Below are positions 6,419 to 64,000 of a stretch of DNA of 64,000 nt, piece after piece. The notes beneath the pieces were generated by a model. The model made no database searches and had not been told where the DNA came from. It was given only the letters and a program-made list of their open reading frames with translations. The translations under genes were made by a program, and so were the position numbers. How positions within the stretch are numbered: the first letter of the stretch is position 1; every line of letters begins with the position of its first letter. This DNA comes from Psammoneis japonica (lineage: Eukaryota): assembly GCA_008632985.1 (NCBI GenBank), contig QPGO01000112.1, forward strand, positions 186,001 to 250,000. The letters are read 5' to 3'.

Positions 6419-6442
6419 CTTGATATCAAGTATGCTCAATTT

Positions 6443-13574: not shown

Positions 13575-13732
13575 ACTCTGTAGCTACTCTCTACTACCGT
13601 ATTCATACAGTAGAGTAGAGCTCTAGTAGAGCTAGTAGAGCTAGTAGTAGCTACTCTCTAGAGCTATCTAGCTATCTAGCTACTCTCTACCGTACTCTCT
13701 ACTCTACTAGCTAGTAGAGAAGTAGTAGTAGC
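13575..13732. repeat. Low-complexity CTAG/GTAG/CTAC-rich tract in the divergent intergenic region
   Basis: Runs such as ctagtagagctagtagagctagtagtagctactctctagagctatctagc. Confidence 0.7.
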
Positions 13733-17435: not shown

Positions 17436-17825
17436 AATGCGGAAGAAATTCTTCTGATTGCAGGCGAACGCTGGGTGATAACTGAACCTGCCGGCAGCGA
17501 AAACAGGCACGTTTGAGAGTCTCCAAATCAGGGGCGTAATTTTCTTGGTGGGTTATATACAACGGATATCTGAGTAGTAGGTTCTGTTCACAAAACAAAG
17601 ACCGTCAATGCCAGCAACGTTTCCCGCTCGAGTGGCCTCAAGAAGCTGTCGTCGAGTCAATAGGTAGCTGTTACAAGTTGCAGAGCACAACAACAGCAAC
17701 ACTTTTTCAGAGCAAACAATCATCGACGGAAAAGCGCGGAATGCGTCCGCGCGACTCCGTCGAATGGAAAAAGAAGCCGGGGGGCGGTGTGCGGCGGGAA
17801 ATGAAAAAATGAGCTTCACATTCCC

Positions 17826-30920: not shown

Positions 30921-30922
30921 GC

Positions 30923-31247
30923 GAATGCTGTACACTGCCTGACGAGTGCGGGAGGTTCTCAACAACCCAAGAGGCAAAGAAATTACCACTCGGCTAATTG
31001 TTGAGTCCCTTCTCCGCACACACATTCAGGCATGTGTTGTGCACAGCATCATCACACAGCATTTGTCCAACTCTCCCTCTCGTCGCAGGATGGGGCATCG
31101 CCTTGGGGGGCGCATCCGCACGGCGGACTTACAAATTTGACCATGCACTCCCTCTGATGGGCAGGATGGGCAGCGCCATGTGGCGCATCCGGCCAAGGGA
31201 GGAGTGGGTTCGAAGCCCAACCGCCCACCCCGGATGGGGTTGGAAAG
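30923..31247 (-). mobile_element. Truncated copy of the TRIM-like element (one 150-bp repeat plus part of the interior)
   Basis: Matches 45892-46214, then jumps into RT/RNase H sequence of element A (~866 bp missing relative to copy 2). Confidence 0.75.
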
Positions 31248-40016: not shown

Positions 40017-43000
40017 AGTCGACATGCAGTCCTGCAGCTGAGTGGGATGGACAAGACCTCGGAGGTTGGCAGCAATGTGAGTGGCAACAGAGGCAAACAG
40101 ACGCTTGTTGAAAGTCGTTGTCCAGAAATTGTGACGAATGTCGTTGCTTCTGTTTGAATCGATTTTGTGATGAGCCAATTATTTCGAAGAGAAAATCTGA
40201 GTCTGGGTTGCAGTCGTGAGATGCAACCAGAATGACGTTGAGTCGTGACTCTCCCTCTCAACCGAGAGAGCTCACCAGCCCACAAGAGCCTTTCTAGCCG
40301 CACGGAATGCATCGGTCCGTAGTCCCTTCGTGAACTGATCGGCTGGTTGCTCTAGAGTGCTGACAGGTTGGATGTCGATCTCCAATTGTTCGACTTTAGT
40401 CCTAAACCAGTGGTGCGGGGTGCCGATGTGTTTGGTTCGCGGAGACAACTTGGGCGTGCGTGCGAACTTGAGGCACGCGGAGTTATCTTCGTACACAACG
40501 GACGCAGGTGGGACATTCTGCTCTACAGGCAAGTCATCGGTGCCTTGGGTTGCGAGCTCAAAAGCCTTGGAGTGAGTCGTGATGGGGTTTTGGCGGTCAG
40601 ACTTTCCGAGTGCGTGGTGGTTGAGCTCCTTGAGAACTTCACGAGTGGGGATGAGATCGCGCATGGCTTGAGAAAGTGCGACATGTTCCGCTTCCATGGT
40701 CGACAATGCTGCAAGAGTCTGCAGCTTGGACACCCAGACAAGCGGGCAGCCGGCGCAGTGGACAAGGTGTCCAGTCCTGGACTTGACAGAAACTGGGTCT
40801 TGACCATCTTCCACACCAAATGACCCCGCGAAGTCAGAATCGACGCAACAATCAACTCGATGATCTTGCGCAGGCTTGAGAATGAGACCTTCAGCAGCAG
40901 TTGCTTTGAGGTGTCGGAGCATCCGCTTCACTGCAGCAGCGTGGGACGCTCGGGGCGCAAACGAGAATCGAGCTGCTTGATGTGTGGCATGTGCAATGTC
41001 TGGCCGGCTGTTCGCTGCCAAGCACATCAACATTCCAACAACTGAGCGACAATCGCAGGGTTCATCAAAAGGCAGGCCGTCCGTGTCGGCACCAACAGCT
41101 GCAGGTAGAGCTGGAGCAGATGCTCCATTGCAATCCTGCATCTGTGCGGCACGCAGGACCTTGTCAATTAGACCGGGTTGAGTGAGTAGAAATCGACCCT
41201 CGGAGAGCTTTTCGATCTTGACACCGAGAAAGTTGCCGACTTCTCCTTCGTCTCTAAGTTCAAATGCGTGGCGATGTTCGTCGTCGGAGACTCCTAACTT
41301 GCGAATTTCGGCTTCTAGAGCTTCAGCTGAAGCTCCAGCAAAAACGGTGTCGTCGACGTGCACCACACACATCATGCCCTCTTTGAAATACAAACAGGGA
41401 TCTATGGCTGAAGGTGCCCATCCGCGCTCGGTTAAACCAGCTCGTAACTTCTCGCAGAAGCCCTTGGGAGACTGTTTTAGGCCGCACAGTCCTTTCAAAA
41501 GTTTGAGAACCATGTTGAGTCCCGACCTTGGCGCAAATCCCTTCGGCGGTGTTGTGCAAACTTCCTCGGCGATGTCAGCTTGGCAAAAGGCTGTGGCACA
41601 GTCCACCTGTCGTGCAGTCCATCCCTCCTTTAATGCCGCAGTGAGCATGAGTCGGATGCTGGACCATTGCACAACCGGCGCGCAGGTTTCGAAGCAGTCG
41701 ACTCCTTCTTTCTGCAAATCACCGCGGACGCAGTGTCGGGCCTTGTGCTTGAGAGGGGTTCCACCTGGGAGTCTCTTGAGCTTTGGTGCCCATGTGCCTG
41801 GAAGTGCATTCATGTGCGGCTGACGCTCGACTGCTTTCCAGGCTTGACGATGTGTGAGTGCGTTGACTTCAATTTTCATCGCCTTGATCCATTCGTCGGC
41901 GTCCGGACCTTTCAGAGCATTGTGTGACGAAGGCACATCAGGGTCCTTGGTTTTCTTGCTAGCTGCGCATGCTCGTGGATCGCCGATGTTGATGGCGCCA
42001 CTGTCCAAATCCGTCTCGAGAGTCGCCAGATGCGCTGGTTGAGCCTCGTGTCCGATCGGCAGCGGCATTTCCTCAACGGAGCTGAAGCAGACCTCATCTA
42101 CAAACTTGGCAGAGTTGAACTGTCCCTTGGTTGACCGTGAAGACCGTCGCAGCCCTGGTGCTCCCTCTGGATTCGTCACAGGAGGTGTCTTGACTGGGGG
42201 AGGAGCTGTTGGTTCCGTCGGCGCTTCGGGTGGCGGAAGTCCGTTGCCATCTTGAGGTTCAGGTGGCTGAATTGGCACAGAGTCCGTAGAGTCTGTAGGA
42301 GTTTGAGTCGCAGGTGGGACTGGTGGCGTTGGCTGCTGAGTCGCAGGTGCGACTCGATCGGTGACGTCGTTGCGAGAAATGGGTGAATCCGGCACAGTGA
42401 TCGATGGAGTGGGCTCAAAATGCCCGCGAATGCGTGTTGCTCTGGCCAGTTCTCGTTCTTTACGTTGACGCTCTGGAGGGGTGAGCCACTCATCGTGTAA
42501 ATGAACTGCCTGATCCTTCTCCAGAGGGATGCACATCGATTGGTTGAGGCACAAGTGTTCCCAGTGATCAGGTGGATCCGTCTCCCTCTCGATTGATGGT
42601 GCGGCAGTGAAGAGATCGTCAAAGACCACATGATGCTGAGGTGCAACACTTCCAGTTTGAAGATTGAGGACCAAAGGAACCTCACTGGAATGGATGGCAC
42701 TGAGTCCCACGAACAAAGCGCGACGAGTGCGAGGCTCCCAATGCGGGAGCTTCTTCCCGGAAGCGAGGGTCGGGTCAAGTGCGTACGCTGGACATCCCCA
42801 TGTGTGAATGTCGCGCAACCGATGTCTTGGCACTGTCGAACCGGTGAAAATGTCCGCTGGGCAATGTCCTTTGGAATTTGGGGTGACATTGTAGATGTGC
42901 GTGGCACAAGAAACTGCCATGGGCCACAGGGAGCTGTCAATCCCCCCCTTCCAGTGGATTGATGCATGAAGCAACATCGCTCTCGCCATGTTGGAGATGC

Positions 43001-45890
43001 TGCGGACACCCCGCTCTGCGACGCCGTTCTGATGATGGGCGTTGGTTCCACAAAAACGGAGACGTTGTTCATGATCTCGTGTGTGTTGTGCAAAAGCGTT
43101 GGCCTTGAAAGCGCCACTGTCGGCAAGAAATTCTTGGACGATGACCCCGTGGTCCAAAGCATGTTTCTCAAACGCTTGCTTCGCGCGTGTCGTCTCAACA
43201 GCGGAGAAACCCAGTTGGTGCTCGACCTGGACATAGCCAGAGGCGTGGTCGACAAAGACACAACCGCCCTTGAATTGCTTGGACGTGGCTTTGCCACAAG
43301 AGTCGAAGGTGCGGCCCAAAAGGCGCGACTCAAAATGATCAACGCTGACAGCCTGACCCGGTCGAAGATGGTCAGCTCGAAGGGCCCCGTCGCGTTCAGG
43401 GACTGTCGACTTGTGAGTGGATCCAAGAGAGCATCTGTGACCTTTAGCATGTTCGCATGCCTCACATCTTGGGTGGTCACACTTCGCTGCAGACTTGAAA
43501 CGGTTCGAAAGGAACGGAACTGCGCGGAGAAGTGCTTGGACGCGACCAAAGTTCAAATGGCCAAAACGGGCGTGCATTTCGAGAAGAAGCTTTTGGCCTG
43601 CCGTGAGGTTTTGATTCTCCTCGTTGAGGATCTGAAGGTTCACTTGAGGAGCGGCAGATGCGCCCTTGGTCATCGACGCAACAGGCAAGTGGCTTGATGG
43701 ATGACATGGCACGACCAACTTGCCTGTCCCGTCAACATGTAAACGGAAAGTGGTTTCATCGCCCTCACACTTCCCACGCACCCCCTTCTCTTCGTTGAAG
43801 AGGCGTTGAGGCGACAGCAGGCGCTGACGGGCTCCAGGGACGTGGCGTGCCATGGTGTTCAGTTGGATGGCAGCCCCACTCGGCGTTGTGAACACCCACG
43901 CAACCGGACCGGTGCCCTGGATGGCAAGACCGTTGGCAATCCCATTGATCTGCAAGGGTTTCTTGGGAACAGTCATGGGCCCCGTAAAATCATCTTTGTC
44001 GGGGGTGACAGCTGACGTGGCACCAGCATCCATGACGACCGTGAGAGCCTCGTCCGACAGACCGATGAGTGCCTGCGGGTCGGATGCAAGGAGGTCGGCT
44101 TGTGATTGTCCGGTGAGTAGTTGGATGGTGGAGGCATTGTAGACGACTGGTCCAACACTTGCTTCCTCCAACAGTTCCACAGGATCTTGAAAATGGGCAG
44201 TGTCCACGACATGATGCGGCAGACAGAGCTCGTCAAACCGGAAGAAATCCGGGCTGAAGTCCTCAAGAGCATCAAAGAAATGCTTCTGGTCGTCGAGAGG
44301 TTCCAGTTCCTCACAGGTGTCAAAGAAGGCTGATTCGTCTATCGCATCAGACCGTTCAGCTGCTTCTGGGCTCTCCCAGTGGGCCTTGAGACGAGTGCTC
44401 AGTGCGTGTGACGGATGGCGCGCGACAAACTCGGTGAGTGCTTGCGTGCCTTTGATCCTGTGACATTCGAACAGTGACCCCGTATCCAACACTGTCCGGT
44501 CATCTAGCTCTTCCACAACATGGTAGACTTGAGAGCTGGCGGTCGAAAAACGACTTGGTACGTTCGAGAATGGATGCTCGGGCTGTTGACCGGTGTAAAC
44601 TGCTGACCATGCCATCACTGCAACGGATGGGACCATCCAGGAGGCTGGAAACCCGTGCAAAGTTGGGAGTTTGCACTGGCGGCGTAGAGCTCGAGGGACA
44701 CATGGGATCGGAGCAAAGCAAAGATGTAGTGCCGTTTCCCAAAACATGGCGGCGAGCCAGAGTGTGAATGGCTTGACTCAACCCAAGAGTGAGCGACGCG
44801 AAGTGGGCTCGTCTTCGACGTCCTCGTGACAATCATCCGCATCCAGGACCTCTGGATCGTAGAAATCGAAGCCACGATACGTAACACACGGAGGTAAGTC
44901 GTAGCATGCGTCTTCAAAGTGTACGTCGTGTTCAAGGATGAGATCTAACTTGGTGTCGTCTGACAGCACATCCGTCAAATGTGCGGGAGCGTCAAAGAAC
45001 TCATCTGGATGCTTGATGGAGCACAGCTTCGAGGCCGGAAACAACTCAATAGCCGGTGGTTCGTTTTCAAAGGTAGAGAAAGCGTCGGAGCATTCGCAGA
45101 AGTCATCGGCGTCTTCGGGAGTGACAGTCTCAACCACGATGGGAGACACGACTGGATCCACAACTGAGGTGAGCACAGGTGGGCTCGTTTCGATGCAAAC
45201 CACCTCAGTGCTAACGACTGTATTGCTCTCCCTCTCGGCCGAAGAAGCCGGAGCAACCACAATTGCAGCAGTGACAGGGGCGGAACAGAAATCCGGGTCG
45301 GTGACGGGATCCGTAGCCGCGCACCACATTCCCGTGAAAACCAACTCGTTGGGGTCGGATTCGTCTCCCTCTGGTGCCTTGGTGGTCTGAGCGGGCGGAC
45401 CCATGGGCACGCCACTGTCCGGATCAGCAACGGAAGACAAATTCCCGGCTGGGGTCTCCTTGGGAGGTTGCCTGCGGTCGTCGGCATGTTCCGCGGTAGA
45501 GTGCTTCTGGTGGATTCCAGGTTTGTCGGCACCCTTCGCCTTGCACGTGGCACACCACTTCCATTCCTTGCCATTCTTATCCTTCTTCGTTTCTCCGTCA
45601 AATTTAGCACGCCAGGCAGCGATGGGTCGCCTCTTCTTCTTGGAAGGGTCGTCTGCAGGCGGCGGATTGGGAGGAGGATCGTAGCGCGGCGGTTTGGCGT
45701 TGCACTTCGGACACGTCTTCTTGGTGTGCCCCTCGAGACCGCAACCACAACAGTGCTTCATCTTCCCAGGGTTGTCCGCAGTCGAAAGATTGCTCTCGGG
45801 TAGCTTGGCTGCTAATGCAGGCCATTCCCTGTCCTTCACGAGTTCGTTGTGCTGCTCTTGAATCCACGCAATGATGCCAACCGGTCCGAG
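40017..45890 (-). mobile_element. Ty1/copia element B, copy 2; 5'-truncated in gag; 3' LTR 40017-40250; 1491-aa ORF at 40272-44747
   Basis: CxxCxxxxHxxxxC knuckle (CCGCGLEGHTKKTC), then protease, integrase, RT and RNase H in copia order; PPT at 40251-40259. Confidence 0.92.
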
Positions 45891-45891
45891 T

Positions 45892-46451
45892 GAATGCTGT
45901 GCACCACCTGACGAGTGCGGGAGGTTCTCAACAACCCAAGAGGCAAAGAAATTACCACTCGGCTAATTGTTGAGTCCCTTCTCCGCACACACATTCAGGC
46001 ATGCGTTGTGCACAGCATCATCACACAGCATTTGTCCAACTCTCCCTCTCGTCGCAGGATGGGGCATCGCCTTGGGGCGCATCCGCACGGCGGACTTACA
46101 AATTTGACCATGCACTCCCTCTGATGGGCAGGATGGGCAGCGCCATGTGGCGCATCCGGCCAAGGGAGGAGTGGGTTCGAAGCCCAACCGCCCACCCCGG
46201 ATGGGGTTGGAAAGGGGCAGGCCGAGAAAGAAAAGGAGGCTTGGATTTGAGGCCGACTCGAACCAGCGACCTCAGGAAGCGTAAAGACTCATAACCACTC
46301 AGAATGCTGTGCACCACCTGACGAGCACGGGAGGTTCTCAACAACCCAAGAGGCAAAGAAATTGCCACTTGGCCAATTGTTGAGCCCCTTCTCTGCACAC
46401 ACATTCAGGCATGTGTTGTGCACAGCATCATCACACAGCATTTGTCCAACT
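45892..46451 (-). mobile_element. TRIM-like non-autonomous LTR element (~560 bp): 150-bp direct repeats at 45892-46041 and 46302-46451
   Basis: On the minus strand: repeat, GGTTATGAGTC (resembles the half-tRNA-iMet PBS of copia/Ty5), 260-bp non-coding interior, PPT gagagggag, repeat. Confidence 0.7.
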
Positions 46452-49347: not shown

Positions 49348-52300
49348 TGACAGGATTTGAACAGGATTTAGATGCTCGCGAAATGTCGCGCGCTGTTTAA
49401 TTTACCGCGCACAGTTTTGTGTGCTTTCACCAGCTGCGGGTTCGGACGTGCCGGCACAACTCTGCGGACCGGATGGGAAGTTTAGCACTTGACAACGAAC
49501 GGGACAGCACAACCCGGCGACTTCTGATTTTAAGGTAGTTCGAGATTTCAAGTCAAGTCCGCTTCAAGTCAAGTCCATTCTCACCCAAGTTTCAAGTCCA
49601 CCTTCGCTTCCCAACAAGAATTGCTTGTCCTGACACCGCTTTTGTCTGCCATGGTTCTCACTCGTCAGCAACAAACCGATGGTTTCGAGCACGTTGTTGG
49701 AACCGTGCTTGCCCAAGGTGCTGGGAGCCCTCTTCGTTTGGCTTTGGCCCAAGACGGCACGGACTCGCATCAAGAACTATTCACGTTCATGCCATCCCAA
49801 ATCGACTCGCTTGAGTGCGACAACGGCACCAATGTGATCCCTTTGCCCCGCGGTTATAAGAACATGTTAGCAGCCCTGGTTAGTCTGCACATTGTCAAAG
49901 CACACGAAGGTCTTGATGTTGCCAATGACTCCTCGTTGTTCACGCATGACGAGTTCCTTGCCCACCGCCTCAGCCCCGACTGCATGTCTTCTGTGTCCAT
50001 CGGCAGCTCACCCCTCGCACCTCCGCATGTCACCAACCCGACCAAGGCACGCGACCCGGTGCGAGACTTCAAGCGAGGCATCAAGCGTGATCCCACCGCT
50101 TTCACGGCTCTCAAATCCGACAAGCAGTGGCACACTTGGCACACCTCACTTGTGGCACAAGCCCGTGCCCAAGACGTCGAGTGCACTCTAGACTCGTTGT
50201 ACAAACCGACCAGCCCCGAAGACAAACTGCTCTTTGCTGAACAGCAAAAGTGCATGTTCGCCGTCTTCGAACGCATCCTTCTCACCGACAAGGGCAAGGC
50301 TCTCATCCGCGAAAATGTGGGGTCTTCTGATGCCCAGACCGTCTACCGCGCCTTGTCCGAGTGTGCGCTCGCCTCCACCCGCGCATCTGTCGAGTCCTCC
50401 ACCTTGCTCACGTGCCTTGCCACCGCACATCTTGGTGATGGTGCTTGGAAAGGTCTGACCCACGGCTTCATCCTTCATTGGCAAGACCAGTTGCGCAAGT
50501 GCGAGGCACTTGTCCTGGCCAGTGACCACTTCTCTGAAGGACAGAAGCGCATCATGCTCGAGAATGCCGCGCACCCTGTCGAGGAACTCCGTGCTGTCAA
50601 GAACCAAGCTGATCAGCATCGCACGCAGAGTGGCAAGAGCCTCACATGTGACCAATGCTGCGGCTTGCTCCTCTCCGTGGCAGCTCAATGCGACAGTGCA
50701 TTTCAACCCAAGACGACACCTCGAGCTCCCCGACGCGCCATGTGCGCACACGACGTCTGCTCCGAGGAACCATCCGACGATGTGTTCTACGACATTGACA
50801 GCGACATTGACGTCCTTCAGGCCAATGCTGCCTGCACCCGTGGTCCCAGCCTCACCGGTGACCAATGGAAACGTCTCCCTCCCGACCACCAACAGATTTG
50901 GGATTCGTTGCCCCATTCCTCCAAGGCGATCATCCTTGAGCATTCTCGTCCGCCTCCCCGCAACCCGCGAGCCAGCAACTGCCATGAGTCCGTTATGGCC
51001 AACCTTCATGACCAACGCCTTGGGAGTGACGGTGATGTCAACTTGTCCAACACGACTCCTGCTGACTCTGGTGACCCCGCTCCAAATGTGGGTGCCACTT
51101 CGGATGATCCCATCCTGGCGCACCTCACCAAGCGCAAGCCACTGCCACCTGGTGATCTGCAACATCTGTTGTCTCCTAACCAAGCCCCCAATGCCAGTCG
51201 ACCGGGGCCATCCGCCGCTCCCTCCACCCCGCCAGCTTCTGCCGATGACACAGAACTCAACGGCCGCACTTGCCGTCGTGCCAATGACCACAATGTCATT
51301 TGCTCTGCCTCTGCTCATTGCTCCACATGCACTGGTGCTCTAGTCGATCGTGGGGCCAACGGCGGCATTGCTGGTGACGACGTTCGCGTCATTGCACGCA
51401 CCTCTCGCCAAGTTGACGTTCAGGGCATTGACGACCATCAATTGGTGGACATCCCTGTTGTCACCGCTGGCGCCATCATTGAGACCCAGCGTGGTCCCAT
51501 CATCGCCATCCTCCATCAGTGCGCGTGCACGGGAAAGGGCAAGACCATCCATTCCTGCGGCCAGCTTGAATGGCACAAACAGGATGTCAACGATCGCTCT
51601 GTCAAGGTGCCCAACGGCTTGCAACGCATTGCCACTCCTGATGGCTGTGTCATCCCCATTGACATCAAGGCCGGCCTGCCTTGTGTTGCCATGTGACCTT
51701 ACACTGACGCCGAATGGGACACCCTGCCCCATGTCATCCTCACCGGTGATGACACATGGGATCCTTCCGTCCTCGATCACTCTGTCACTGATGACGACCA
51801 GTGGTGCGACGCGATCTCTGACCTGCAGGACGATCCCACTGCCAACCCATTTGACGAACACGGCAACTGCCGTCATCGTGTCGTTGTCAACGAGACCATC
51901 ATGTCCGCTTCCTTGTCTGCCGATCACGCGTCCGCCCTTGATGATCACCTCATTCCGAATGACGACGTGTTCTGCGAGTGTCATCTACACGCGATTGACC
52001 CCAAGGGCGACGACGTCCCGCCCCCGGAGCGCACTGTACAGCCCAAGGACCCCCCCTTCGAGTCTCTTCGGCCTCACTTTGGCTTCCTGCCTGCCAATGC
52101 AGTCCGTCGTGCTTTTGACTGCACCACGCAGTGCGCCCGCATGCCCACCGGTGCACACCTCAGGAAGGCCTGCAAATCACCCAACCCCGCCCTCAACGTG
52201 CACCGCCGCAACGAGCCTGTCGCCACTGACACCATTTGTGCCGACACCCCGGCCGTCGACTCTGGTTGCACCAGCGCCCAACTGTTTGTTGGCACCGAGT

Positions 52301-55300
52301 CTACCGTCACTGACGTCTGCAGCACCAAGACGGACAAAGAGTTTGTCAACACACTCAAGGATCAGATCCGTGAGCGTGGTGCCCCATCCAAACTCATTGG
52401 CGACCGTGCTCAAGCTGAGATCAGCAACAAAGTGCTCGGGATCCTACGAGCCCTCTTCATCTCCAGCTGGCAAAGTGAGCCTCACCAGCAACAACAAAAC
52501 TTTGCCGAGCGTCGACACCAGACCGTGAAGCGCATGGCGAACACTGTCATGGATCGTTTTGGTTCGCCCGCCCACACATGGCTGCTGGCACTCATGTGTG
52601 TGTGCTTCATGCTCAACCATGCAGCGTCCCCACGTCTCCACTGGTGCACGCCCCTCGAGACTCTCACTGGCTCCACCCCGGACATCAGCCCATTGCTTCG
52701 CTTTCACTGGTGGGAACCCGTGTGCTTCCACCTCGATGACTCCGATTGGCCGTCCGAATCCCGTGAGTTGCGTGGACGCTTCGTTGGCATTGCTGAGCAC
52801 GTCGGCCACCAGATGACCTTCAAGATTCTCTCTGACAAGACTCAGAAGATCCTCCACTGGTCCAACGTACACTCCGCTGCCACCGATCCTGCCGTTCGAA
52901 ACCTGCATCTTGATCCTCCTGATGGGGAGCCACCTGAACCCATCATCAAATCTCGCCATGACGACAACCCCGTCGATTCTCCTGATGGGGAGATCAGGAC
53001 ACCCAAGATGCCAGTTTTCGATCCGCAAGACATCATCGGACGCACCTTCCTCATGCAGCCACAAGAGGACGGACAACGCCACAGAGCTCGCATCGTCAAG
53101 GCCGTCGAAGACCATGAATGGAAAGTGAATGGCAATCCCAAGCTTGCTAAGTTCGTCTGCTCTGTCAACAACGACGAATGCGAGGAAGTCCTTGCCTGCA
53201 ACGACATCATGAATCACATTGAGCAAGAAGACGAAGACACTGCTGTTTGGAAATTCCGACGCATCGTGTCACACGAAGGACCTCTGAAGCCTCATGACCC
53301 AACCTGGAAAGGCTCAAGCTACAACATCATGCTTGAATGGGAAAGTGGGGAGATCACGTCCGAGCCTCTCGCCATCATCACCAAGGACGACCCCGTCACC
53401 TGCGCCATCCATGCACGAGAGAACGGACTTCTCGACACGGATGGCTGGAAGCGGTTCCGCACCATCGCGAGGCACCAAAAGAAGCCATTTTGCATGGCCA
53501 ACCAAGCCAAGCTTCGCTCCTTCCGCACTGCACCTCGCCACAAGTGCAGATGCGAAGTTCCCCGGAACTGCAAACACGCCATGTCACTAGACGAGCGCAA
53601 CGGCAACCGCAAATGGGGAGACGCAACTAATCTCGAGATGGGCCAACTCGGGGAATACGAAGTCTTCCATGACTGCGGGCCCTTCGAGTCTTCCACTCCT
53701 CCTGCGGGACACAAGAAGATCCGAGTGCACCTGGTGCACGACGTGAAACACGATGGTCGCCACAAGGCACGACTCGTAGCCGATGGGCACCTCACAGACG
53801 TACCTGTCGACAGTGTCCACTCCGGAGCAGTCTCCCTCCGTGGCCTTCGGTTGATGATTTTCCTGGCCGAACTCAACGAGTTGGAGACATGGGCCACCGA
53901 CATTGGCAATGCCTGTCTTGAAGCCACCACTGAGGAGAAGCTCTACATTGCAGCCGGACCCGAATTTGGCAAACTCGAAGGACACATCCTTGTCATCCAC
54001 AAGGCCCTGCATGGACTGCGCAGCTCCGGTCTTCGCTGGCACGAGCGCTTTGCCGACTGCCTGTGAGCTGAAGGCTTCTTCCCCTGCCGCGCCGAACCTG
54101 TCATTTGGATGCGCAGGAATGGCGACCACCATGAGCACATTGCCGTTTATGTGGATGACCTCGCCATTGCTGTGAAGGACCCTCAATCTTTCGTCGACAC
54201 TCTCACGGTAAAGTGCAAGTTCAAGCTCAAGGGTGCGGGACCCATTGAGTTCCATCTGGGTTGCGACTTTTCCCGGGATCCCGACGGCACCTTGAGCCTG
54301 TCTCCGCGCAAGTACATCAAGTGCATGGTCGACAGCTGCACCCGACTGTTTGGGGAGAAACCCACCACCAACGCCCTGTCACCTCTGGAGAAGGGTGACC
54401 ACCCCGAACTGGACACTTCCGAACTGCTGGAGCCCAATGGCATTCACAAGTTCCAGTCCCTTGTTGGCTCACTCCAATGGGCAGTGTCTCTTGGTCGAAT
54501 TGACATCACCACGGCCATCATGTCACTCTCCAGCTTCCGAGCTGCGCCCCCTCAAGGCCACTTGGATCGTGCCAAACGCGTCTGTGGGCACCTCTCCAAG
54601 ATGCGACACGGCGCTCTCCGCGTTCGCACGGAAGAGCCCGACTGTTCGGATCTCCCTGCTCCGGCCTGTGAATGGATGCATTCCGTGTACGGCGAAGCAG
54701 AAGAGATGATCCCGAAGGACGCTCCACCGCCCCTTGGCAAGTTCGTCACTGCCACCCACTGCGTCGATGCAAACTTGTGCCATTGCATGCTCACCGGACA
54801 CTCTGTCATGGGAATGCTCCACTTCCTCAACAAATTCCCGGCTGATTGGTTCTCTAAGAAGCAAGCCACTGTGGAGACTGCGACCTGCGGGTCTGAATTT
54901 GTTGCCGCAAGGACTTGTGTCAAGCAGATTGTCGACCTGCGCATCACCCTGCGCTGCCTCGGCGTCCCGACCCGTAATGTCAGTCACATGTTCGGTGACA
55001 ACAAGTCAGTTGTAGACAGTGCCACCATCCCGCACTCCAAGTCACACAAGCGACACACCGCACTGTCGTTCCACCGTGTGCGTGAGGCAATCACCTCTGG
55101 TTGCCTTGAGCTCCACTTCATCGAAGGCTCCTGCAACCCTGCTGACATTCTCAGCAAGCATTGGGGTTGCTCCCAAATCTGGGACCTTCTCCGCCCCCTC
55201 ATGTTCTGGAACTTCATTCCATCCAAAGTCGAATCTGTTTCTGTGACTCCTCAAGCAAACTGGGGAGTGACAGGATTTGAACAGGATTCAGGTGCGCGCG

Positions 55301-55543
55301 AAATGTCGCACGCTGTTTAGCCCACCGCGCACAGTTTTGTGTGCTTTGGTTCCGCGCGTTTGCGCGCGATGCAGTTTGCTTTCGAGCCACAAGGCTCACA
55401 AGAATGACAACAGCAGCCCAATTGCACCGACTTGCACGTCTTTTGGCTCCTGTGACGGTCTCTGAGCGGAGACTCATCTGCCATTTAGACAGCAGCAAGG
55501 AGTCATTGTTTGAATTCTTGCCATTTGCCTTCAATTTCTGTCA
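49348..55543 (+). mobile_element. Ty1/copia element A, copy 3. No nested insert; ~0.9-kb deletion of 5' LTR and leader at ~49430; 3' LTR 55268-55543
   Basis: Single-frame gag-pol from 49651 to 55320 broken only by two CGA->TGA stops (51694, 54064); TSD AATGG. Confidence 0.95.
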
Positions 55544-57255
55544 AATGGGGTCACTGCATTGCATCTCTTTCATCGCTGCGTGCTCACTGGCTCCCCTCGA
55601 CCCATGTTGGCATGACTGCGTTGCTGCACTGCTGCTCAGCCAAGCCACAGATTGGCTCATGTGCCTTGTTTTTGTGGATCTTGGGTGCCCTCCCGAGAAC
55701 AAGAGGTGCTTCCACTTTTCCCAAATGTGAGCAGCCACAGCTGCAATGTGCACTTTTCTTGCTGGGCACAAGAAGCGAAGAGGTCAGCTGGCCAGAAACA
55801 AAATTTTGCAGCTGCGCTCTCTATGCAGAAGCCACAACAATTTTTCAAAAACTGACCAAGGTGCCCATTGTGGCCACAACTCTGAACAACACTTGTCTTG
55901 ACATGCTGGCTCAGTTTCAGCCACATGTCTGGCATTGCCAAAGTTGTCGTTTTTTGTTTTGTGGCTCAGCAGCTTGTTCAGAGCAGGCTCATTTGTTTGG
56001 AAAAGCTTCAGCTCAACTGCCCATTTCACTGCATTTTGTTGTTTTTTCTGCTGCATTTGTCGGGGCCTCTTTGTGGCATTGGCACCCCACACGGTGCAGC
56101 TGCCAATCATCTGTCGTTTGCATGAGAACAATGGCGCACTTCCCTGTTACAATCCACTGTGTCCTCATCATCAACAACTTCCAAGGTTGTTGAAAAATGA
56201 CTGTTGACCTTGGCACGCAAAATTGAATTCACTGAATGTCACGTGCATGGCTGAAAAAATCAATGCATCTGTCTGATTGTCCATCCGTCCAAATTTTGAA
56301 TGCCACGTGCGCGTGAAGAACCACTCTGACCGGAGGACCAACACATTGTGGCTGCACTTTTCACAGAAAAGCCACAAGGTTTCAAAAACCAACCAAGGTG
56401 CCCAATGCAGCCAGGGGGCTCTGAACAACATTTTGTCTTGACACACTGGCTCACTTTCAGCCACAAATCTGGCATTGCCAAAGTTCCTTGTCATTTTTTG
56501 GTTGGCGGTTGTTGACACTTTTCAAATGGCCATGGATTTGCAATGTTTTGTTTTGTCCTCTGTGACATGTTTCTGCTCAACAAGAGTGCAACTTGTCAAT
56601 GACTGAAATTTTCACATGCACGCCAATTGCACCCACAGATTTTCAACACACGTGAACCCAGTTTCCGTTCAACAATGGATTCTGCATTTTGCTGAGAGTG
56701 AAAAGATGCCACTTGTTTCACATTCTTCCCTCCGCCACTCCTTTTGCCACACTCCATTTGCACTGCATCACCGTGCATTCACCGTGCATTCCGTGCTTCC
56801 ACAAAAGAGAAATGGGGTGTGATGGCCACCACACTCTGAGCTGAAGTTGGAGTGTGGCACGCCATCTGGCACATTGGAAGCTGACTGCATTACAGAACAA
56901 ATGAAAATCTGTGAAATGGGGTCACTGTGTTGCATCTCTTTCATTGCTGCATGCTCGCTGGCTCCCCCCTCAACCCATGTTGGCATGACTGCATGTCATT
57001 GCTGCACTGCTGCTCAGCCAAGCCACAGATTGGCCCCTGTGCCTTCTTTTTGTGGATCTTGGGTGCCCTCCAGAGAACAAGAGGCACTTCCACTTTTCGC
57101 AAATGTGAGCAGCCACATCTGCAACATGCACTCTTCTTGCTGGGCACAAGAAGCAAAGGTCAGCTGGCCAGAAACAAAATTTTGCAGCTGCGCACTCTCT
57201 GCAGAAGCCACAACAATTTTTCAAAAACTGACCAAGGTGCCCATTGTGGCCACAA
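55544..57255. repeat. Tandem units with a second empty target site (AATGG at 56915-56919)
   Basis: Same empty-site unit subtype as around 33034. Confidence 0.9.
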
Positions 57256-58170
57256 CTGTGCGGAAGTGACCGTGGCATTCCATCACATGCTCAAGTGGGA
57301 TCTTCGTGAGAGCTTCAAGTCCATCAATATTTTGTGTGTAGCTGCGCAACAATTTCTTTTGTTTTGCAAGCAAAGCAACAAAGACATGAGTGCAGGTCGG
57401 CGAATGACGCAATCCTGGCCAAATGCTCTATGCCAGAGAACAGAATGGCTCGGGATTCCTCTTGTAAAAACCAACATCAAAGATCGCTTCAGCGCAAGGC
57501 AAATCACACTTTTGCAGGTTGTCATGGAGGCCTGTCCCCGGTGTACGAAAGTCGGGAATTCCAGCGCTGCACGACACACCCGCACCACTCAATGCGACAA
57601 TTCTTTTTGAGTTGCGGATCCAATCGGCCACCAATCGAAAGTCTTTAGAGAACTTTGGAGTTGAGATGTTCAACTTCTCGATCTCCTGCGTTATTTTGTT
57701 GAGTGGCTCGTCCGTGTTAGACCTAGATTTATCAGAATCATTCGAAGCCTTTGCCTCTTCGTTGTCGGAAGCAGTCATAATGCGGAAGAAATTCTTCTGA
57801 TTGCAGGCGAACGCTGGGTGACAACTGAACCTGCCGGCAGCGAAAACAGGCACGTTTGAGAGTCTCCAAATCAGGGGCGTAATTTTCTTGGTGGGTCACA
57901 TACAACGGATGTCTGAGCAGCAGGTTCTGTTCACAAAACAAAGACTGTCAATGCCAGCAACGTTTCCCGCTCGAGTGGCCTCAAGAAGCTGTCGTCGAGT
58001 CAACAGGCAGCTGTTACAAGTTGCAGAGCACAACAACAGCAACACTTTTTCAGAGCAAACAATCATCGACGGAAAAGCGCGGAATGCGTCCGCGCGACTC
58101 CGTTGAATGGAAAAAGAAGCCGGGGGGCGGTGTGCGGCGGGAAATGAAAAAATGAGCTTCACATTCCCAG
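57256..58170 (-). pseudogene. Duplicated 5' half and upstream region of the sirtuin gene; hypermutated, with a nonsense mutation
   Basis: Colinear with 16913-17827 (offset 40,343). Tyr->Cys/His changes (GLYDNLQKYNLPY -> GLHDNLQKCDLPC) and a CAG->TAG stop at 57428-57430. Confidence 0.95.
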
Positions 58171-58445
58171 TGAACCCAATTTCCGTTCAACAACGGATTC
58201 TGCATTTTACTGAGAGTGAAAAGAGGCCACTCATTTCACATTCTTCCCCTCCGCCACTCCTTTTGCCACACTCCATTTGCACTGCATCACCGTGCACTCA
58301 CCGTGCATTCCGTGCTTCCACAAAAGAGAAGTGGGGTGTGATGGCCGCCACAGGTGCCACTCTGTGCTGAAGTTGGAGTGTGGCATGCCATCTGGCACAC
58401 TGGAAGCTGATTGCATTGCAAAACAAATGAAAATCTGTGAAATGG

Positions 58446-58721
58446 TGACAGGATTTGAACAGGATTTAGATGCTCGCGAAATGTCGCGCGCTGTTTAGTT
58501 TGCCGTGCACAGTTTTGTGTGCTTCAGTTCCGCGCATTCGCGCGCGATGCAGTTTGCTTTTGAGCCACAAGGCTCACAAGAATGACAACAGCAGCCTGAT
58601 TGCACCGACTTGCATGTCTTTCGGCTCCTGCAACGGTCTCTGAGCGGAGACTCATCTGCCATTTAGACAGCAGCAAGGAGTCATTGTTTGAATTCTTGCC
58701 ATTTGCCTTCAATTTCTGTCA
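58446..58721 (+). mobile_element. Solo LTR of element A
   Basis: 276-bp TGACAG...CTGTCA flanked on both sides by AATGG. Confidence 0.95.
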
Positions 58722-59825
58722 AATGGGGTCACTGTGTTGCATCTCTTTCATCGCTGCGTGCTCACTGGCTCCCCTCGACCCATGTTGGCATGACTGCATT
58801 GCTGCACTGCTGCTCAGCCAAGCCACAGATTGGCTCGTGTGCCTTCTTTTTGTGGATCTTGGGTGCCCTCCAGAGAACAAGAGGTGCTTCTACTTTTCCC
58901 AAATGTGAGCAGCCACAGCTGCAATGTGCACTTTTCTTGCTGGGCACAAGAAGCGAAGAGGTCAGCTGGCCAGAAACAAAATTTTGCAGCTGCGCTCTCT
59001 TTGCAGAAGCCACAACAATTTTTCAAAAACTGACCAAGGTGCCCATTGTGGCCACAACTCTGAACAACACTTGTTGTGACATGCTGGCTCAGTTTCAGCG
59101 ACATGTCTGGCATTGCCAAAGTTGTCGTTTTTTGTTTTGTGGCTCAGCAGCTTGTTCAGAGCAGGCTCATTTGTTTGGAAAAGCTTCAGCTCAACTGCCC
59201 ATTTCATTGCATTTTGTTGTTTTTTCTGCTGCATTTGTCTGGGCCTCTTTGTGGCATTGGTGCCCCACACAATGCAGCTGCCAATCATCTGTCATTTGCA
59301 TGAGAACAATGGCGCACTTCCCTGTTGCAATCCACTGTGTCCTCATCATCAACAACTTCCAAGGTTGTTGAAAAATGACTGTTGACCTTGGCACGCAAAA
59401 TTGAATTCACTGAATGTCACGTGCATGGCTGAAAAAATCAATGCATCCATCTGATTGTCCATCCGTCCAAATTTCGAATGCCACACACGCGTGAAGAACC
59501 ACTCTGACCAGAGGACCAACAAATTGTGGCTGCACTCTTCACGGAAGCCACAATTTTTCAAAACTGACCAAGGTGCCCAATGCAGCCGGGGCTCTTAACA
59601 ACATTTTGTCTTGACACACTGGCTCACTTTCAGCCACAAATCTGGCATTGCCAAAGTTCCTTGTCATTTTTTGGTTGGCGGTTGTTGACACTTTTCAAAT
59701 GGCCATGGATTTGCAATGTTTTGTTTTGTCCTCTGTGACATGTTTCTGCTCAACAAGAGTGCAACTTGTCAATGACTGAAATTTTCACATGCGTGCCAAT
59801 TGCATTCACAGATTTTCAACACACA
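58722..59825. repeat. Last, partial tandem unit
   Basis: Matches 47966-49068, then similarity ends. Confidence 0.85.
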
Positions 59826-62800
59826 CAGTTGTCAACTTTGTTTCTTGGCAGTCATTGAGTCACAAACAATTGAATCTTTTTGCTTGTTTTAAGCCACCTG
59901 TGTGGCTCATTCTGTTCACATTTCAAACACTTGTCAAGAACTTTCATTTGTTTTTCCCTCCATTTGTCAGGTCTCTGCCTTTGTTTGAGTCACCTGTGTG
60001 GCTCACACAAGTGTTTTCTCTGTGCACTGCAGTTTGCTGGTTTGATCTGTCATGGTGAAGGGAAGTGAGCTTGGTGATGTGTTTCTGAAAGGCACTCAAG
60101 CAAGCTTTGCACAAGATGTGTTGGTTGACAAGACTCTTGAGACACAGCATTTTTGCTTTGGCAGTTGTGTGAGAGAGCTTTGCAGGCAGAGTCACTGCAA
60201 AACAATCAGTCAGGAGATCACGGTTGAAGTGCTGACATGTCCTGTCCTCTTTTCCAGGTCTGCCAGGAGAGCTGCAGTGATGGTGATGTGTGAAACAACC
60301 AAGGCAAGTGTGAAAAGGTTGCTCGTCATTGTGGAATTTTTCACAATGCAGTGCATGCTCACAGGCATTGCTTTTGTTTCATTTGGCAGCACAGGCATGG
60401 CATCATTTTGGCTTGGCAGAAGGATTGGTCACTTTCTTGCACTTTTGAGCATGAGATCCTTGCTTGCAAGCTTGCAAGAATTTCTTGGATGCAAGCCAAT
60501 GTGAACTCTTTTGGGTGGCTTGCTCATTTCACATGTGACGTGGACGATTGTCACAGGCCTTGGCAGTGCAGTCAAAATTGAGGCCGCCATTTCAATGCCA
60601 GAAGACTGGTCTCCAGACACTGGATTTTATGGGGAGCAGCAGTCAAGGTAAATGTTGGTGAGAAGGGATGCAATGCAGGTCAGTTTGTTCATGCTCATTG
60701 GCTTCTTTGACTTCTCTGCCATGCAGATGATGCTCACAGTGCTTGGACCTTCAATGCACACACTTTTTAGAGACTGCTGCAGCAGAAGGGGGTCCAAAGA
60801 CTGCGCTGCAGATTCTCTTGTTGGGCAGGTTGGTCACAGCAGACAAGAATTTACAAGATGGGAGACAACTCCCAGTTGCAGCTGGCCATTGAAAGCACCA
60901 GTCCATGCCACTTTGTGATGTTGCTCTTTGACAAAGCCATTCTCATCATTGCAGCAATGATTTCTGGTGCTTGGAGCCCGGCAGAGAGAGCTGCCTGCAC
61001 ACTCACAACTCACCAAGTCCTGGATCAAACCCACCTTTTATGGTTAAATGGCGCCAATTGTGCTTGTTGATTCTTGCTGTTGCTCACATTCAATGTCCTT
61101 CTGTGCAGCAGATGCTTCCTGGACTGTTGCACAGTGTGCAGTCTGCATCATTGACAAACCGCGCATCATTCTGTGCATGCAAAATGATGAAAATGTGTGT
61201 CCAACAGAAGGGCTCCGGCCAGCTGTTGTCATTCAATTGCCCCTGGTGGCATTTTCTGCAGTTTGGCCCCAATCTTAGAAGCATTGGCCACTCAAAAATG
61301 CCTCTTTGCAGACAATGTGAACAACTCAAGCTGCGCTCTGAATCAACTTGATTGGAGCTGGCATGCTCACAGAGTCCGATGTCCAACTGCTTGCGGCTCC
61401 CAAGGAACACACAAAATTTTGACACCTGGTGACTTCCCAGGAGGACAGTCTCCTTGGGTCACAGAGGGTGGCATTTGAGCCATTGATTGAAACTTTTGGA
61501 TGGATCAAAGCAGACATTGTTTCATCTTTCATCAGCCACACATCCTCCATTTCGAGAAGGAGTTCATTCTGGTGTTGAGTTTGACGACATGTCTTGGTGT
61601 CTCCAGTTGGAGCAACAAGCTTGCCATGTGGATGGTGCTTGATGCACAGGCCAGCGCCACTTGAGAAACTGAAATGGAGCATGTGGTGGTGTCCCCATGT
61701 CCCAGCAAACATTTGCCAAATGCCAAGCCAGATCATCATCATTGCCACAAATGCACATTGGTTTGAGTTGCTGCCTGCATGACATGCACCCCAAATGCAC
61801 TCAGTTGCATTTGTTGAGCAGGTTGGCCCAATTGTTGTGTCTTTGCATTCTTGATTTGGGAAGCTGCAAGCCTTGTTTTTGGGCAGCAGCAGACCCTTGC
61901 ATGATTCCTCCACAAACAAAAAGATGCCCAGCTGCACAACAAGGTGTGGAAGCATCAGGCCCACAGATGTGGCAAAGGAGGTGTGCAGTTGTCTTTGGAT
62001 GGCATTGGAGGACTCCAGCGGGTTGCCAGGGACATGCCAACAACCATGGTTGGGGAGCATGTCAATGCAGCACCTTGTCTCTCTGACATTGCTGGCTTTG
62101 GCCCAGCCAGCCGCAACCTGCAGCCAGAGACAAGGGAAACATCTGTGAAACAGTGCATGTGCTCTGTCATCTCTGGATGGCCTTGGATGACTCCATCAAG
62201 ATCCAGAGGATGCAATGACAACAATGACTGGGAATCAAAGGCCTCATCTCATGTCAACACAGCACCCTGTCTCTCTGACATGGCTGGGTTCTTTGGCCCA
62301 GCTGCCCCACCCACAGAGACAAGAAAACCATCTGTGCAACAGTGCAAGTGCCGAGTCATCTTGGGATGGCTTTTGGTGACTCCATTGGATCCCAGGAGAG
62401 CCAACAACAACAATGGCTGGGAAGCAAAGGCCTTGTCTTGTGTCAATGCAGCACCTTGTCTCTCTGACATCATGGCTGGTGGGTTTGGCCCAGGCAGCCC
62501 CCCCACCTGCAGAGACAAGAAAACCATCTGTGCAACAGTGCAAGTGCTCAGTCATCTTGGGATGGCTGTTGGTGACTCCACTGGGTCCTTGAGGACACAA
62601 CAGCAACAATGGTTGGGAAGCAAAGGCCTTGTCTTGTGTCAACACAGCACCTTTTCTCTCTCACACAACTGGGTTTTGCGCTGCCACCAAGAACCCAAAT
62701 TTGCAAGGAACACAAGAGAACCATCTGTGTGACAGTGCAAGCACTCAATTGTCGTGGGTTTGGCACAAGAGACTCCACTGGGTCCCTGAGGAGGCAAGAA

Positions 62801-64000
62801 CCACAATGGCTGGGAAAGAAAAGCCTTGTCTTGGGCCAATGCAGCCCCTTTTGTTTCTGATGTGATTGTGGCTTGCTTTGGCCCAGCCACCCCACCTGCA
62901 GAGACAAGGGAGCTTTCTGGCTTTTTGACAGTGCAAGTGCTCAGTTGTCTTTGGATGGCCTTGGGTGCTTCCATTGCATCCCAGGGGAGCCAACAACAAC
63001 CAGGGCAGGGAGTCAGTGAATGGAAATTGACGGTGTTCCCTGTCTCTTGTTTGGACGGAAAACCAAGAGAGAACAGAAGAGAACAACCCACCTTTGAGTT
63101 GCCCACTTTCTTTGCAAGGTTGGTCTCCAAAGTTGTCATTTCACTGGCACAAAGGGTCTGTTTTTGAGCTTTCTGGAGAGAGTCAATTGTCTTGTTGGCA
63201 GTGGCAATTTTTGCACCGCGGGCTTTGCACTTTTGCTGCAGCTGCCAGCACATCTTTTCGTTTTGGTTTTTGCAAAGGGTGCGCATCTGCCAGCAAAACA
63301 ACAGCCACATTCTGCACTCATCACCAAACATTTTTTTGGATTGATGCATCAGGTGGCGTGGTGCTTGGAGGCTCCAAACAGCAAGGGAGCATTGTGGGAA
63401 GGGACTTTGTTGTGCTCCTTGAGAAAGTTGAGATCTTCTTGTCAAACTGCAGGGGAACAGATGTCAGACACATTGCCAAAGGTGTTGGCTTCTTCATTGA
63501 TGGAGGCAGCAGCAGCAGCAGCAGATCCTGGGTTGCTGGCTGGCAGAGCATGCATGGCTCCAGACAAAGAGCCTTGATGTTGCCCCAAAGGCTTGTCCTG
63601 GAGCCTCACCTGGGCTGCCTGGGAGGACCTTGCTTGACCTTGCGCTTGAGCACCACGAGCACCACCTCCACCATGGTCGCCAGTGGCGCCGGTGTGACTG
63701 GCGCTGTTGTGGCCAGCACCTTGTGGGTTCTGCTTCTTTCTTCTTTTTCTTGGTGGCGAGACAAGGTGACATGGGGCCACAGCACCACAAGATCCTCCTT
63801 CTTGTGTGGTGCTCAACCCCACAGCTCTTAAAGTCACACCTGGAGCTCACCAGACACCACCAGCATCCTCAGCTTGTGACTGTTTGGCTGGTTTTTGCAG
63901 CCATGGGCCTCTTCTTTGCTCTGGAGTTCCTTTGGAAGCTCAAGTCTGCTGCCATTTGGGGCAAGGTGACATGGGGCCACAACCACACAAGACAGGCCTT
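59826..64000. repeat. Degenerate TpA- and CpG-depleted repeat-like DNA
   Basis: About 9 TA seen by eye in 4.2 kb, nearly all preceded by T; CpG rare; no credible protein. Confidence 0.6.
62040..63000. repeat. Diverged tandem repeat, ~192-bp period, about 5 units
   Basis: A gcacc-tgtctctctgaca-like anchor recurs at ~62070, 62262, 62451, 62647 and 62841. Confidence 0.8.

Follow-up and report, generated by a model that had tools for sequence, protein, structure and literature searches.

Repeat-directed hypermutation has so far been known as a C>T process, as in repeat-induced point mutation (RIP) or in the action of APOBEC enzymes; the opposite change, A/T>G/C at TpA, has been reported once, in April 2026, from one alga. 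In the chlorarachniophyte Bigelowiella natans, Mettrop et al. described a TpA-specific A/T>G/C hypermutation of integrated viral DNA (bioRxiv 10.64898/2026.01.13.699255). In mutation-accumulation lines, two integrated viral regions received 231 of the 302 nuclear point mutations; A>G and T>C changes made up nearly all the mutations in these regions, and every such change was at TpA. The rate was about 6e-7 per site per generation, approximately 1000-fold the background, in some lines only. The main targets are a giant-virus insert and a virophage, in which TpA is partly depleted (Rho of 0.45 in the viral insert), and the larger target region is single-copy and transcriptionally silent. In the long term, low TpA goes with high CpA+TpG, and there is an enrichment in reverse transcriptase and DDE domains. 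Adenine deamination was proposed as the cause, with an ADAT2-like protein as the candidate (10.64898/2026.01.13.699255). Here we analyze a 64-kb stretch of the genome of the diatom Psammoneis japonica (GenBank assembly GCA_008632985.1, contig QPGO01000112.1, positions 186,001 to 250,000), in which an intact sirtuin gene and a truncated copy of it, embedded in an array of Ty1/copia retrotransposons, form a before/after pair. We conclude that the repeat DNA of this diatom is probably subject to in-place, TpA-specific DNA hypermutation. All positions are those of the whole 64-kb window, and refer to the + strand unless marked.

The "before" sequence, copy A (16913-17908), consists of the 5' half of the native sirtuin gene and of its upstream DNA. 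It aligns without gaps, over 996 nt, with the "after" sequence, copy B (57256-58251), a truncated sirtuin pseudogene fragment. The two differ at 31 positions, and 31/31 differences are transitions, as the initial annotation had found by hand alignment; its split of these differences into 22 that remove a TA (16 to CA and 6 to TG on the + strand), 5 at CpG and 4 others is exact to the count. Copy A has 35 TA dinucleotides, 22 of which (63%) are lost in B; B contains 15, including two that are new (TG>TA at 17086 and CA>TA at 17303). The context-enrichment test that had been suggested as a check shows that 22 of the 70 positions inside TA are changed, against 9 of 926 (0.97%) elsewhere (odds ratio 46.7, Fisher p=1.7e-20). 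Among the 456 A/T positions outside TA, a single one is changed; in the direction A to B, 23 of the 31 differences are T>C or A>G, and 22 of these 23 are in TA. Five of the 60 CpG of copy A (8%) have become TpG or CpA in B, which has created none. Outside both TA and CpG, the changed sites of B number 4 in about 866 (0.46%), compared to 63% of the TA; per TA site, a change is about 130 times likelier than the background change in B.

The loss of TA is similar in the coding part (14/23) and upstream of the ATG (8/12; Fisher p=1.0), so that the non-coding DNA is affected too, and it involves both strands (TA to CA 16 times, TA to TG 6 times), both as the initial annotation had claimed. The changes form 7 runs when examined for strand-coordinated clustering (permutation p=0.11), and ATA/TAT contexts have been lost about as often (14/20) as the other contexts (8/15, p=0.48). 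The pair is indeed the natural before/after control that it had been taken for: it cleanly demonstrates specificity and direction, and it points to targeting by place.

The native gene (16452-17435, - strand) is an intact, intron-less open reading frame (ORF) of the SIRT2/SIRT3 type. Its ATG is at 17435 and the frame is open up to 17510. A phmmer search of the PDB retrieves human SIRT2 as the closest solved structure (8xe7_A, E=2.1e-69, query residues 81-336); 6308 homologues were found, and PF02146 is present in 120/120 of the best 120. The similarity to the catalytic core of SIRT2 and SIRT3 includes the conserved motifs, which identifies the protein as a sirtuin (SIR2, PF02146).

The direction of the changes was examined by aligning A with the best 120 of these 6308 homologues. 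Tyr110 is the state of all 120 homologues and Tyr116 that of 113; at position 120, 81 homologues have Tyr, as A does, and 31 have Phe. The states of B at these three positions (Cys at 116 and at 120) occur in none of the 120, while the same three Tyr are present in human SIRT2 in the PDB alignment. The native state is also favored at V87 (89/120 homologues, against 2 for the state of B), N117 (89/120 against 14), N171 (89/120 against 4), A183 (116/120 against 0) and D31 (48/120 against 1), whereas sites 28, 70, 154 and 190 are weak or uninformative. The initial annotation had argued that the conserved Tyr of the native gene fix the direction, and the family states bear this out; it had also asked whether an outgroup might show CA or TG as ancestral, and the homologues favor the native states, except at site 150. 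All the polarised changes thus fall in B, with site 150 as a possible exception. Because of the homologue states, of the premature stop of B (CAG>TAG in codon 142 of the open frame, 57428-57430, - strand) and of its truncation, we regard it as secure, from the sequences compared, that TA is ancestral and that the direction is TA>CA/TG in B.

The sirtuin part of copy B ends at 57256, and LTR-derived sequence (LTR, long terminal repeat) extends from there: the left flank of B is an LTR fragment (56908-57255, + strand, seen by self-BLAST), and its junction to sirtuin DNA (57255|57256) is new. On the contrary, the junction between the sirtuin upstream region and an LTR is identical in both copies (17826|17827 = 58169|58170). 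The LTR-derived sequence that adjoins the native upstream region (17827-17908, + strand) was delimited by alignment with five other LTR copies; left of the junction, the sequence in the five other copies of this LTR piece is not that of A and B. That the host-LTR junction is common to A and B indicates that the native locus already carried the LTR when B was copied from it, most simply as a DNA segment. The description of B as a "captured" gene copy therefore holds for its present place, between LTR-derived pieces of the Ty1/copia array, and not for retrotransposition, since B carries the native host-LTR junction. The LTRs on the two sides differ in their private changes (0 on the A side, 17 including 4 transversions on the B side), which do not date the event; this difference means that the two LTRs are not simple counterparts, or that the A-side one has been homogenised. 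We also note that the LTR piece beside both sirtuin copies keeps a TA (TTTTACTGAG, at 17865 and 58208) where the five other LTR copies have TG; the LTR copy at the native junction is the less mutated version at 17865.

The contrast between A and B is part of a contrast that extends over the whole window. The TA odds ratio is 0.64 in the genes (3600-16912) and 0.50 in copy A, whose TA level matches that of the neighboring genes; it is 0.23 in copy B, 0.22-0.24 in the nested copia element E2, 0.12-0.14 in the older copia element E1, 0.05 in the LTRs and 0.02-0.03 in the outer repeats. All the repeats of the window are thus at 0.02-0.24, with CA and TG raised up to 1.3-2.0, and the TA odds ratio declines with the apparent age of the repeat. 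The borders are sharp: on the left, TA regains the genic level within about 250 bp, near 3250-3500, and at the native locus TA is kept up to about 160 bp from the LTR junction (17661 and 17665 are intact in A). The CpG odds ratio is also low, at 0.09-0.14 in the oldest repeats and 0.45 in the LTRs. The ratio of CA to TG in the non-coding repeats is 0.95-1.06 (about 1.0 in the LTRs).

The depletion depends on the context. ATAT is found 0 times in 47.9 kb of repeats, against 106 times in 14.2 kb of genes; per length and relative to genes, GTAT/ATAC are at 0.03 in the repeats, CTAT/ATAG at 0.05 and ATAA/TTAT at 0.08, while CTAA/TTAG, at 0.42, is the least depleted context. The stop codons follow: counted on both strands, TAA and TAG have densities of 3.7 and 4.5 per kb in the repeats (18378-57255, 1-3000 and 59825-64000) compared to 18.4 and 22.4 in the genes, the density of TGA being about 40 per kb in both. 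As TAA and TAG are nearly gone, the repeats have long overlapping open frames, which are false proteins for gene finders. Such frames were seen in several reading frames and on both strands, for example 21234-22385 (- strand) over 21238-22389 (+ strand).

The array that harbors copy B (18378-56907, delimited by self-BLAST, ORFs and Pfam) is made of two kinds of elements. E1 (+ strand) is present in three copies (20476-25070, 35418-40015 and 49430-55320), of which the first two harbor a nested E2 (- strand); the pol frame of E2 in the second copy (40272-44777) matches RVT_2 (E=3.2e-32), as well as SH3_retrovirus (5.8e-05) and gag_pre-integrs (2.1e-04), the last two below the Pfam cut-off, and E1 pieces match RVT_2 too. 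The succession of GAG-pre-integrase, integrase-linked SH3-like and RVT_2 domains in one polyprotein is that of Ty1/copia elements. No clean LTR pair by which to date E2 was found, only a pair of 158-nt direct repeats at 45892 and 46302. Two tandem units of 12.9 kb, c1 (18378-31247) and c2 (33320-46214), are 97.9% identical and have E2 nested at the same place. The third E1 copy does not contain E2: its sequence at 54032|54034 joins what E2 splits in the other two, which indicates that E2 first inserted into one unit and that duplication at the DNA level then enlarged the array.

The proteins encoded by the array bear the mark of TA loss. Tyr makes up 0.45% of the E2 pol, against 2.17-3.90% (median 3.10%) in 120 homologues, all of which are normal. 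We considered the 25 alignment columns in which at least 70% of 35 copia homologues have Tyr: E2 has Tyr in 3 of them, Cys in 10, His in 7, Phe in 3 and other residues in 2, whereas about 86% of its other conserved columns are kept. That Tyr>Cys (TA>TG) and Tyr>His (TA>CA) are both common implies that both strands have been hit. The excess of Ile>Val/Thr/Met, Val>Ala and Thr>Ala in E2 fits a loss of TA both within and across codons. The same count in E1 is hampered by divergence, 194 of 567 conserved columns being identical; its Tyr columns contain 3 Tyr, 6 His, 1 Cys and 4 Phe. A scan of metagenome contigs with the E2 pol gave 6 loci, at 26-35% identity, too distant to be used.

The comparison of c1 with c2 shows what has happened since they were duplicated. 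C/T differences are frequent when the next base is A (35/2440, 1.43%) or G (105/3842, 2.73%, which is CpG decay) and rare when it is C (7/3508, 0.20%) or T (8/2982, 0.27%); there are 15 transversions. At 27 dinucleotides, one unit has CA and the other TG, and 22 of the 27 lie in 25088-30936, in or beside E2; the third copy polarises five of them, with TA in three, CG in one and TG in one. From the alignment, these dinucleotides are best understood as double, independent changes of one ancestral TA, more rarely of a CG. The pol frame of E2 gives examples: at codon 494, c1 has CAT and c2 has TGT, against Tyr (15) or Phe (11) in the homologues; at codon 1478, one unit has CTG and the other CCA, against Leu in 30 homologues; and at codons 765/766, one has CTT|GCC and the other CTC|ACC, against Leu and Thr in the homologues. 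Each case is accounted for by one ancestral TA that changed twice, independently. Conversely, TA is present in only one of the two units at 36 sites, 31 of which are in E2. At the 14 such sites that change an amino acid of the E2 pol, the homologues back the TA state 8 times and the other state 0 times, and are uninformative 6 times. These alignments indicate that c1 and c2 lost ancestral TA independently after they had duplicated, hence that the process acts on DNA in place.

Comparison of the three E1 copies gives 115 singletons, 64 of which are CpG decay, and 19 of the 28 "other" A>G singletons come after C, where they are best read as mis-polarised CpG decay. The A>G singletons number 2 among 376 AA sites, against 5 among 50 TA sites.

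We propose that copy B arose by duplication of the 5' half of the sirtuin gene and of its promoter, that it is dead and truncated, and that it would lie inside a silenced Ty1/copia array. After it was copied, B would have undergone in place the process that has nearly erased TpA from all the repeats of the window, a context-specific hypermutation that would convert TpA to CpA or TpG on either strand. The ordinary CpG>TpG decay of methylated DNA would run in parallel; that B lost 5 of 60 CpG and A none is as expected if B is methylated and A is not. In the window, the changes are specific to TpA, restricted to repeats with sharp borders, found on both strands, and made after DNA-level duplication. 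By its dinucleotide composition, the affected repeat DNA also shows decay of CpG of the methylation type, and the process appears to spare the expressed native gene. An enzyme would be responsible. The simplest and likeliest chemistry, which we put forward tentatively and as was proposed for B. natans, would be that adenine preceded by T is deaminated to inosine and then read as G. Because the fragment of a host gene has been hit and the expressed native gene, 40 kb away, is clean, we infer a targeting by silent chromatin or position, and not by the origin of the sequence.

Compared with that of B. natans (10.64898/2026.01.13.699255), the signature matches in every feature tested. The changes are A/T>G/C, as are all 22 TA changes of B; the mutated base is an A after T or a T before A and the others are spared (22/23 and 1/456); the process is regional, with genes at 0.64 and repeats at 0.02-0.24 and sharp borders in the one window analyzed; and the depletion of TpA is coupled to an enrichment in CpA+TpG. 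Both hosts are marine algae of the supergroup of Stramenopiles, Alveolata and Rhizaria (SAR), but B. natans is a rhizarian and P. japonica a stramenopile. The evidence in B. natans comes from de novo mutations in lines, and here from an evolutionary before/after comparison; the targets there are viral inserts, and here arrays of LTR retrotransposons and a fragment of a host gene lodged among them; the depletion, partial there (Rho 0.45), is near-complete here (0.02-0.24) and is joined by CpG decay. The novelty that was assumed for this locus in the initial annotation is therefore lower, since the same signature had already been described in B. natans; the sequences are best filed as a further case, this time on retrotransposons, of the TpA-directed A/T>G/C hypermutation whose first description, in 2026, came from a chlorarachniophyte. 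A full-text literature search, which left most subscription journals outside its coverage, retrieved the B. natans preprint as the one work of direct relevance, and no report of TpA loss in diatom repeats.

RIP, ADAR/ADAT and APOBEC editing, and the hotspots of polymerase eta each fail at least one of the defining features that were tested. RIP, in Neurospora and other fungi, also consists of transitions in a dinucleotide context, on both strands, that inactivate repeats in place and leave a strong dinucleotide skew. However, RIP occurs in a different kingdom, makes TpA from CpA by C>T where the process described here destroys TpA, and marks both duplicates, whereas the native copy is clean here. 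The editing of retroelements by ADAR/ADAT and APOBEC3 has in common with our observations the deaminase-type transitions, which can inactivate retroelements. It acts on RNA or on minus-strand cDNA and is strand-specific, whereas here resident DNA is changed on both strands, AA is spared, and a segment of host DNA is hit. The CpG decay of methylated transposons, by deamination of 5-methylcytosine (5mC), takes place in the same DNA, also ends in CpA/TpG and accounts for 5 of the 31 changes of B, but it differs by the dinucleotide and the chemistry, and is slower per site (8% of CpG against 63% of TA in B). RID-like DNMT4 genes, whose function is not known, are present in many diatoms according to a paper on diatom DNA methyltransferases (PMC9998398); they bear on the CpG changes and not on TpA.

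Several other explanations have to be weighed against in-place hypermutation directed by chromatin or position. The trigger could be the duplication of sequence, by repeat pairing as in fungal RIP, with A clean through selection against alleles hit by a burst. We consider this unlikely, although B is a duplicate, all the depleted regions that we see are repeat-like, RID-like DNMT4 enzymes exist in many diatoms (PMC9998398) and, if there are bursts, selection on coding damage would also clear linked upstream changes and leave the upstream TA of A intact: A has no polarisable derived change, with site 150 as a possible exception, whereas RIP normally marks both copies, and the main target in B. 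natans is described as single-copy (10.64898/2026.01.13.699255). The mutations could also have been made at the level of RNA, by A-to-I editing of retrotransposon transcripts by an ADAR- or ADAT-like enzyme with U 5' of the edited A, or by deamination of cDNA in reverse transcription, B riding in the LTR. The elements are indeed LTR retrotransposons and B is within LTR-derived DNA; 16 of the 22 TA changes of B are T>C on the E1-sense strand, and CA is about 20% above TG on the sense strands of E1 and E2. A preference for a 5' U/T is documented for ADAR and for TadA/ADAT-type enzymes (10.64898/2026.01.13.699255). Yet the changes lie on both strands (in E2, Tyr>Cys 10 times and Tyr>His 7 times; CA/TG about 1.0 in LTRs), the tandem duplicates that have the nested insertion in common lost TA independently after duplicating, the native host-LTR junction in B argues for DNA-level copying, E2 is unlikely to be self-mobile with 22 of 25 conserved Tyr lost, and AA contexts are spared (1/456 non-TA A/T changed, 2 AA>AG singletons in E1). 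To ADAR, a 5' A is about as acceptable as a 5' U, and its mark would be A>G on one strand with a 5' A tolerated; here both strands are hit and AA is spared, and editing of RNA or cDNA is in our opinion improbable. The modified base could be thymine instead of adenine: TET/JBP-type oxidation of T in TpA to 5-hydroxymethyl- or 5-formyl-uracil, which mispairs with G, would give T>C, and as TpA is self-complementary, T>C and A>G on the opposite strand are indistinguishable by sequence. The 5-hydroxymethyluracil of dinoflagellates and the base J of kinetoplastids do show a preference for T followed by A, and 5-formyluracil is mutagenic, but we know of no oxidised thymine base in diatoms. The sole published proposal for this signature is adenine deamination (10.64898/2026.01.13.699255), and thymine oxidation seems quite unlikely to us.

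The association of TA loss with CpG decay in the same DNA could suggest error-prone patch repair by a polymerase eta-like enzyme, at WA motifs, recruited to the T:G mismatches that result from 5mC deamination in methylated repeats. The hotspot of polymerase eta, known from the WA motifs of antibody hypermutation, includes TA, but this polymerase also hits AA and makes many transversions. With 31/31 transitions, non-TA A/T sites spared, and A>G singletons in E1 at 2/376 AA against 5/50 TA, such repair is very improbable here. The polarity could be the reverse, B being ancestral and the TA of the native copy having been made by RIP-like C>T at CpA, since CpA>TpA is the signature of fungal RIP and site 150 would fit (His in 99 homologues, Tyr in 11). 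However, the family has the Tyr of A at 110, 116 and 120 (in 120, 113 and 81 of 120, and 0 for the states of B), A is intact where B has a stop, and the TA level of A is that of neighboring genes, which leaves this reading next to no chance; RIP-like creation of TA in A is excluded by the homologue states and by the stop and truncation of B. Last, the pattern could be an artefact (a mis-assembled allele) or have a non-mutational cause, such as selection against TA or gene conversion with a GC bias. An N gap does adjoin A, the left junction of B is unbridged and the depth of the B-type sequence is about 0.4 of that of the A-type. However, B-type unitigs with 0 differences exist, A/T outside TA would change as well under gene conversion or an overall AT>GC bias (1/456 changed), and selection cannot strip 63% of the TA from a truncated pseudogene with 0.97% change elsewhere; we give such explanations hardly any weight.

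B-type sequence is present in the reads of a public sequencing run: among its contigs are two B-type pieces with 0 differences to B, 57440-57556 at a depth of 29.3 and 57867-57976 at a depth of 25.6. The A-type contigs beside them have depths of 57-76, so that the B type is at about 0.4 of the A type; it may be that copy B is on one haplotype only. At 57256/57257 the contigs have loose ends, from which the canonical LTR and the native gene each run on separately.

A number of observations weigh against in-place hypermutation or narrow its reach. The run is probably that of the assembly's own sample, none of the listed contigs bridges the left junction of B at 57256, and copy A adjoins a gap of 469 N (17909-18377). 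At codon 150 (TAT in A, 17061-17063; CAT in B, 57404-57406), A has Tyr and B has His, whereas 99 of the 120 homologues have His and 11 have Tyr; this site is either a TA change that recreates the family consensus by chance, or a change in A. The TA changes of B are split 16 to 6 between the strands (p=0.052), and on the sense strands of E1 and E2 CA is about 20% above TG. This excess of CA may reflect coding composition or a small strand effect; together with the 16:6 split, it also makes possible a component of TA loss that is linked to transcription. The TA changes of c1 and c2 are over-dispersed, many sites having changed in both units or in neither, which requires strong heterogeneity among sites or bursts; the context data support heterogeneity. 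The LTR copies are already TA-free while 95-99% alike, and one piece reaches a depth of about 20,000; as they are TA-free, alike and highly abundant, much of the TA loss is older than the last amplification. Regarding generality, the contrast between repeats and genes was measured in one 64-kb window.

The rest of the window consists of repeats and host genes. To the right of copy B, LTR-derived sequence (58170-59824, + strand) has odds ratios of 0.05 for TA and 0.45 for CpG (over 58252-59824). One piece of it, 58412-58500, has a summed contig depth of about 20,000 in the public run, compared to about 60-75 for single-copy DNA, which means that TA-free sequence of the LTR type is extremely abundant in the sample. 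Both ends of the window are repeat-like DNA nearly without TA and CpG: 1-3250 (0.02 for TA and 0.09 for CpG over 1-3000) and 59825-64000 (0.03 and 0.14). The right flank includes a 196-bp tandem repeat (62060-63011, 4.9 copies, 72% matches), and a Pfam search with the open frames of these outer repeats gave no match above the cut-off. Between the left flank and the sirtuin gene are a gene for a nucleolar protein of the Nrap/UTP22 type (7154-10967), in two frames (7154-10018 and 10221-10967) probably separated by a short intron or a frame change, and a gene with a weak match to HSF-type DNA-binding domains (11681-12526, E=0.00099, below the cut-off). The best named match of the Nrap/UTP22 protein is from the diatom Seminavis robusta (37%), with oomycetes next (about 25%); the named matches of the sirtuin are from diatoms (Ditylum, Nitzschia, Cyclotella, Thalassiosira), and the nearest Atlas cluster is mostly Bacillariophyta; all three point to a diatom, or a near relative of diatoms, that is absent from the protein collections. 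The top protein identities are 47-63%.

There is a hint, to be taken as a lead only, that the process extends beyond the genome of P. japonica. Among the best 150 representatives that match the E2 pol in a library of 1.84 billion proteins, three copia frames from public ENA and NCBI records, 37-41% identical to E2, are poor in Tyr: P0317 (Tyr 0.05%, His 4.46%, Cys 3.69%), P0348 (Tyr 0.76%) and P0273 (Tyr 0.84%). At the conserved Tyr columns, P0317 has Tyr in 0 of 24, Cys in 8 and His in 5, and P0348 has Tyr in 1 of 18, Cys in 6 and His in 4. The TA and CA/TG odds ratios are a simple genome-wide marker with which the process can be looked for in other protists.

It is possible, and we put it forward as a speculation, that diatoms or this lineage run a dedicated genome defence which deaminates adenine at TpA in silenced DNA, double-stranded or transiently opened, and which would mirror fungal RIP. 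Such a defence would be a homologue of the Bigelowiella process, old in SAR and possibly wider, and its enzyme would be a natural, chromatin-guided, TpA-specific editor of DNA adenine. If the enzyme proves to be a DNA adenine deaminase specific for TpA, it would be of interest to genome editing. The locus extends the process, as an independent case, to a second major lineage, to which some major primary producers of the ocean belong. It adds that retrotransposon arrays can be targets, and that the process reaches a near-complete erasure of TpA, by which repeats turn GC-richer and acquire long spurious open frames, in each of the six frames. It adds too that a host gene fragment is hit once it is among repeats, which suggests that targeting follows place or state and not foreign origin.

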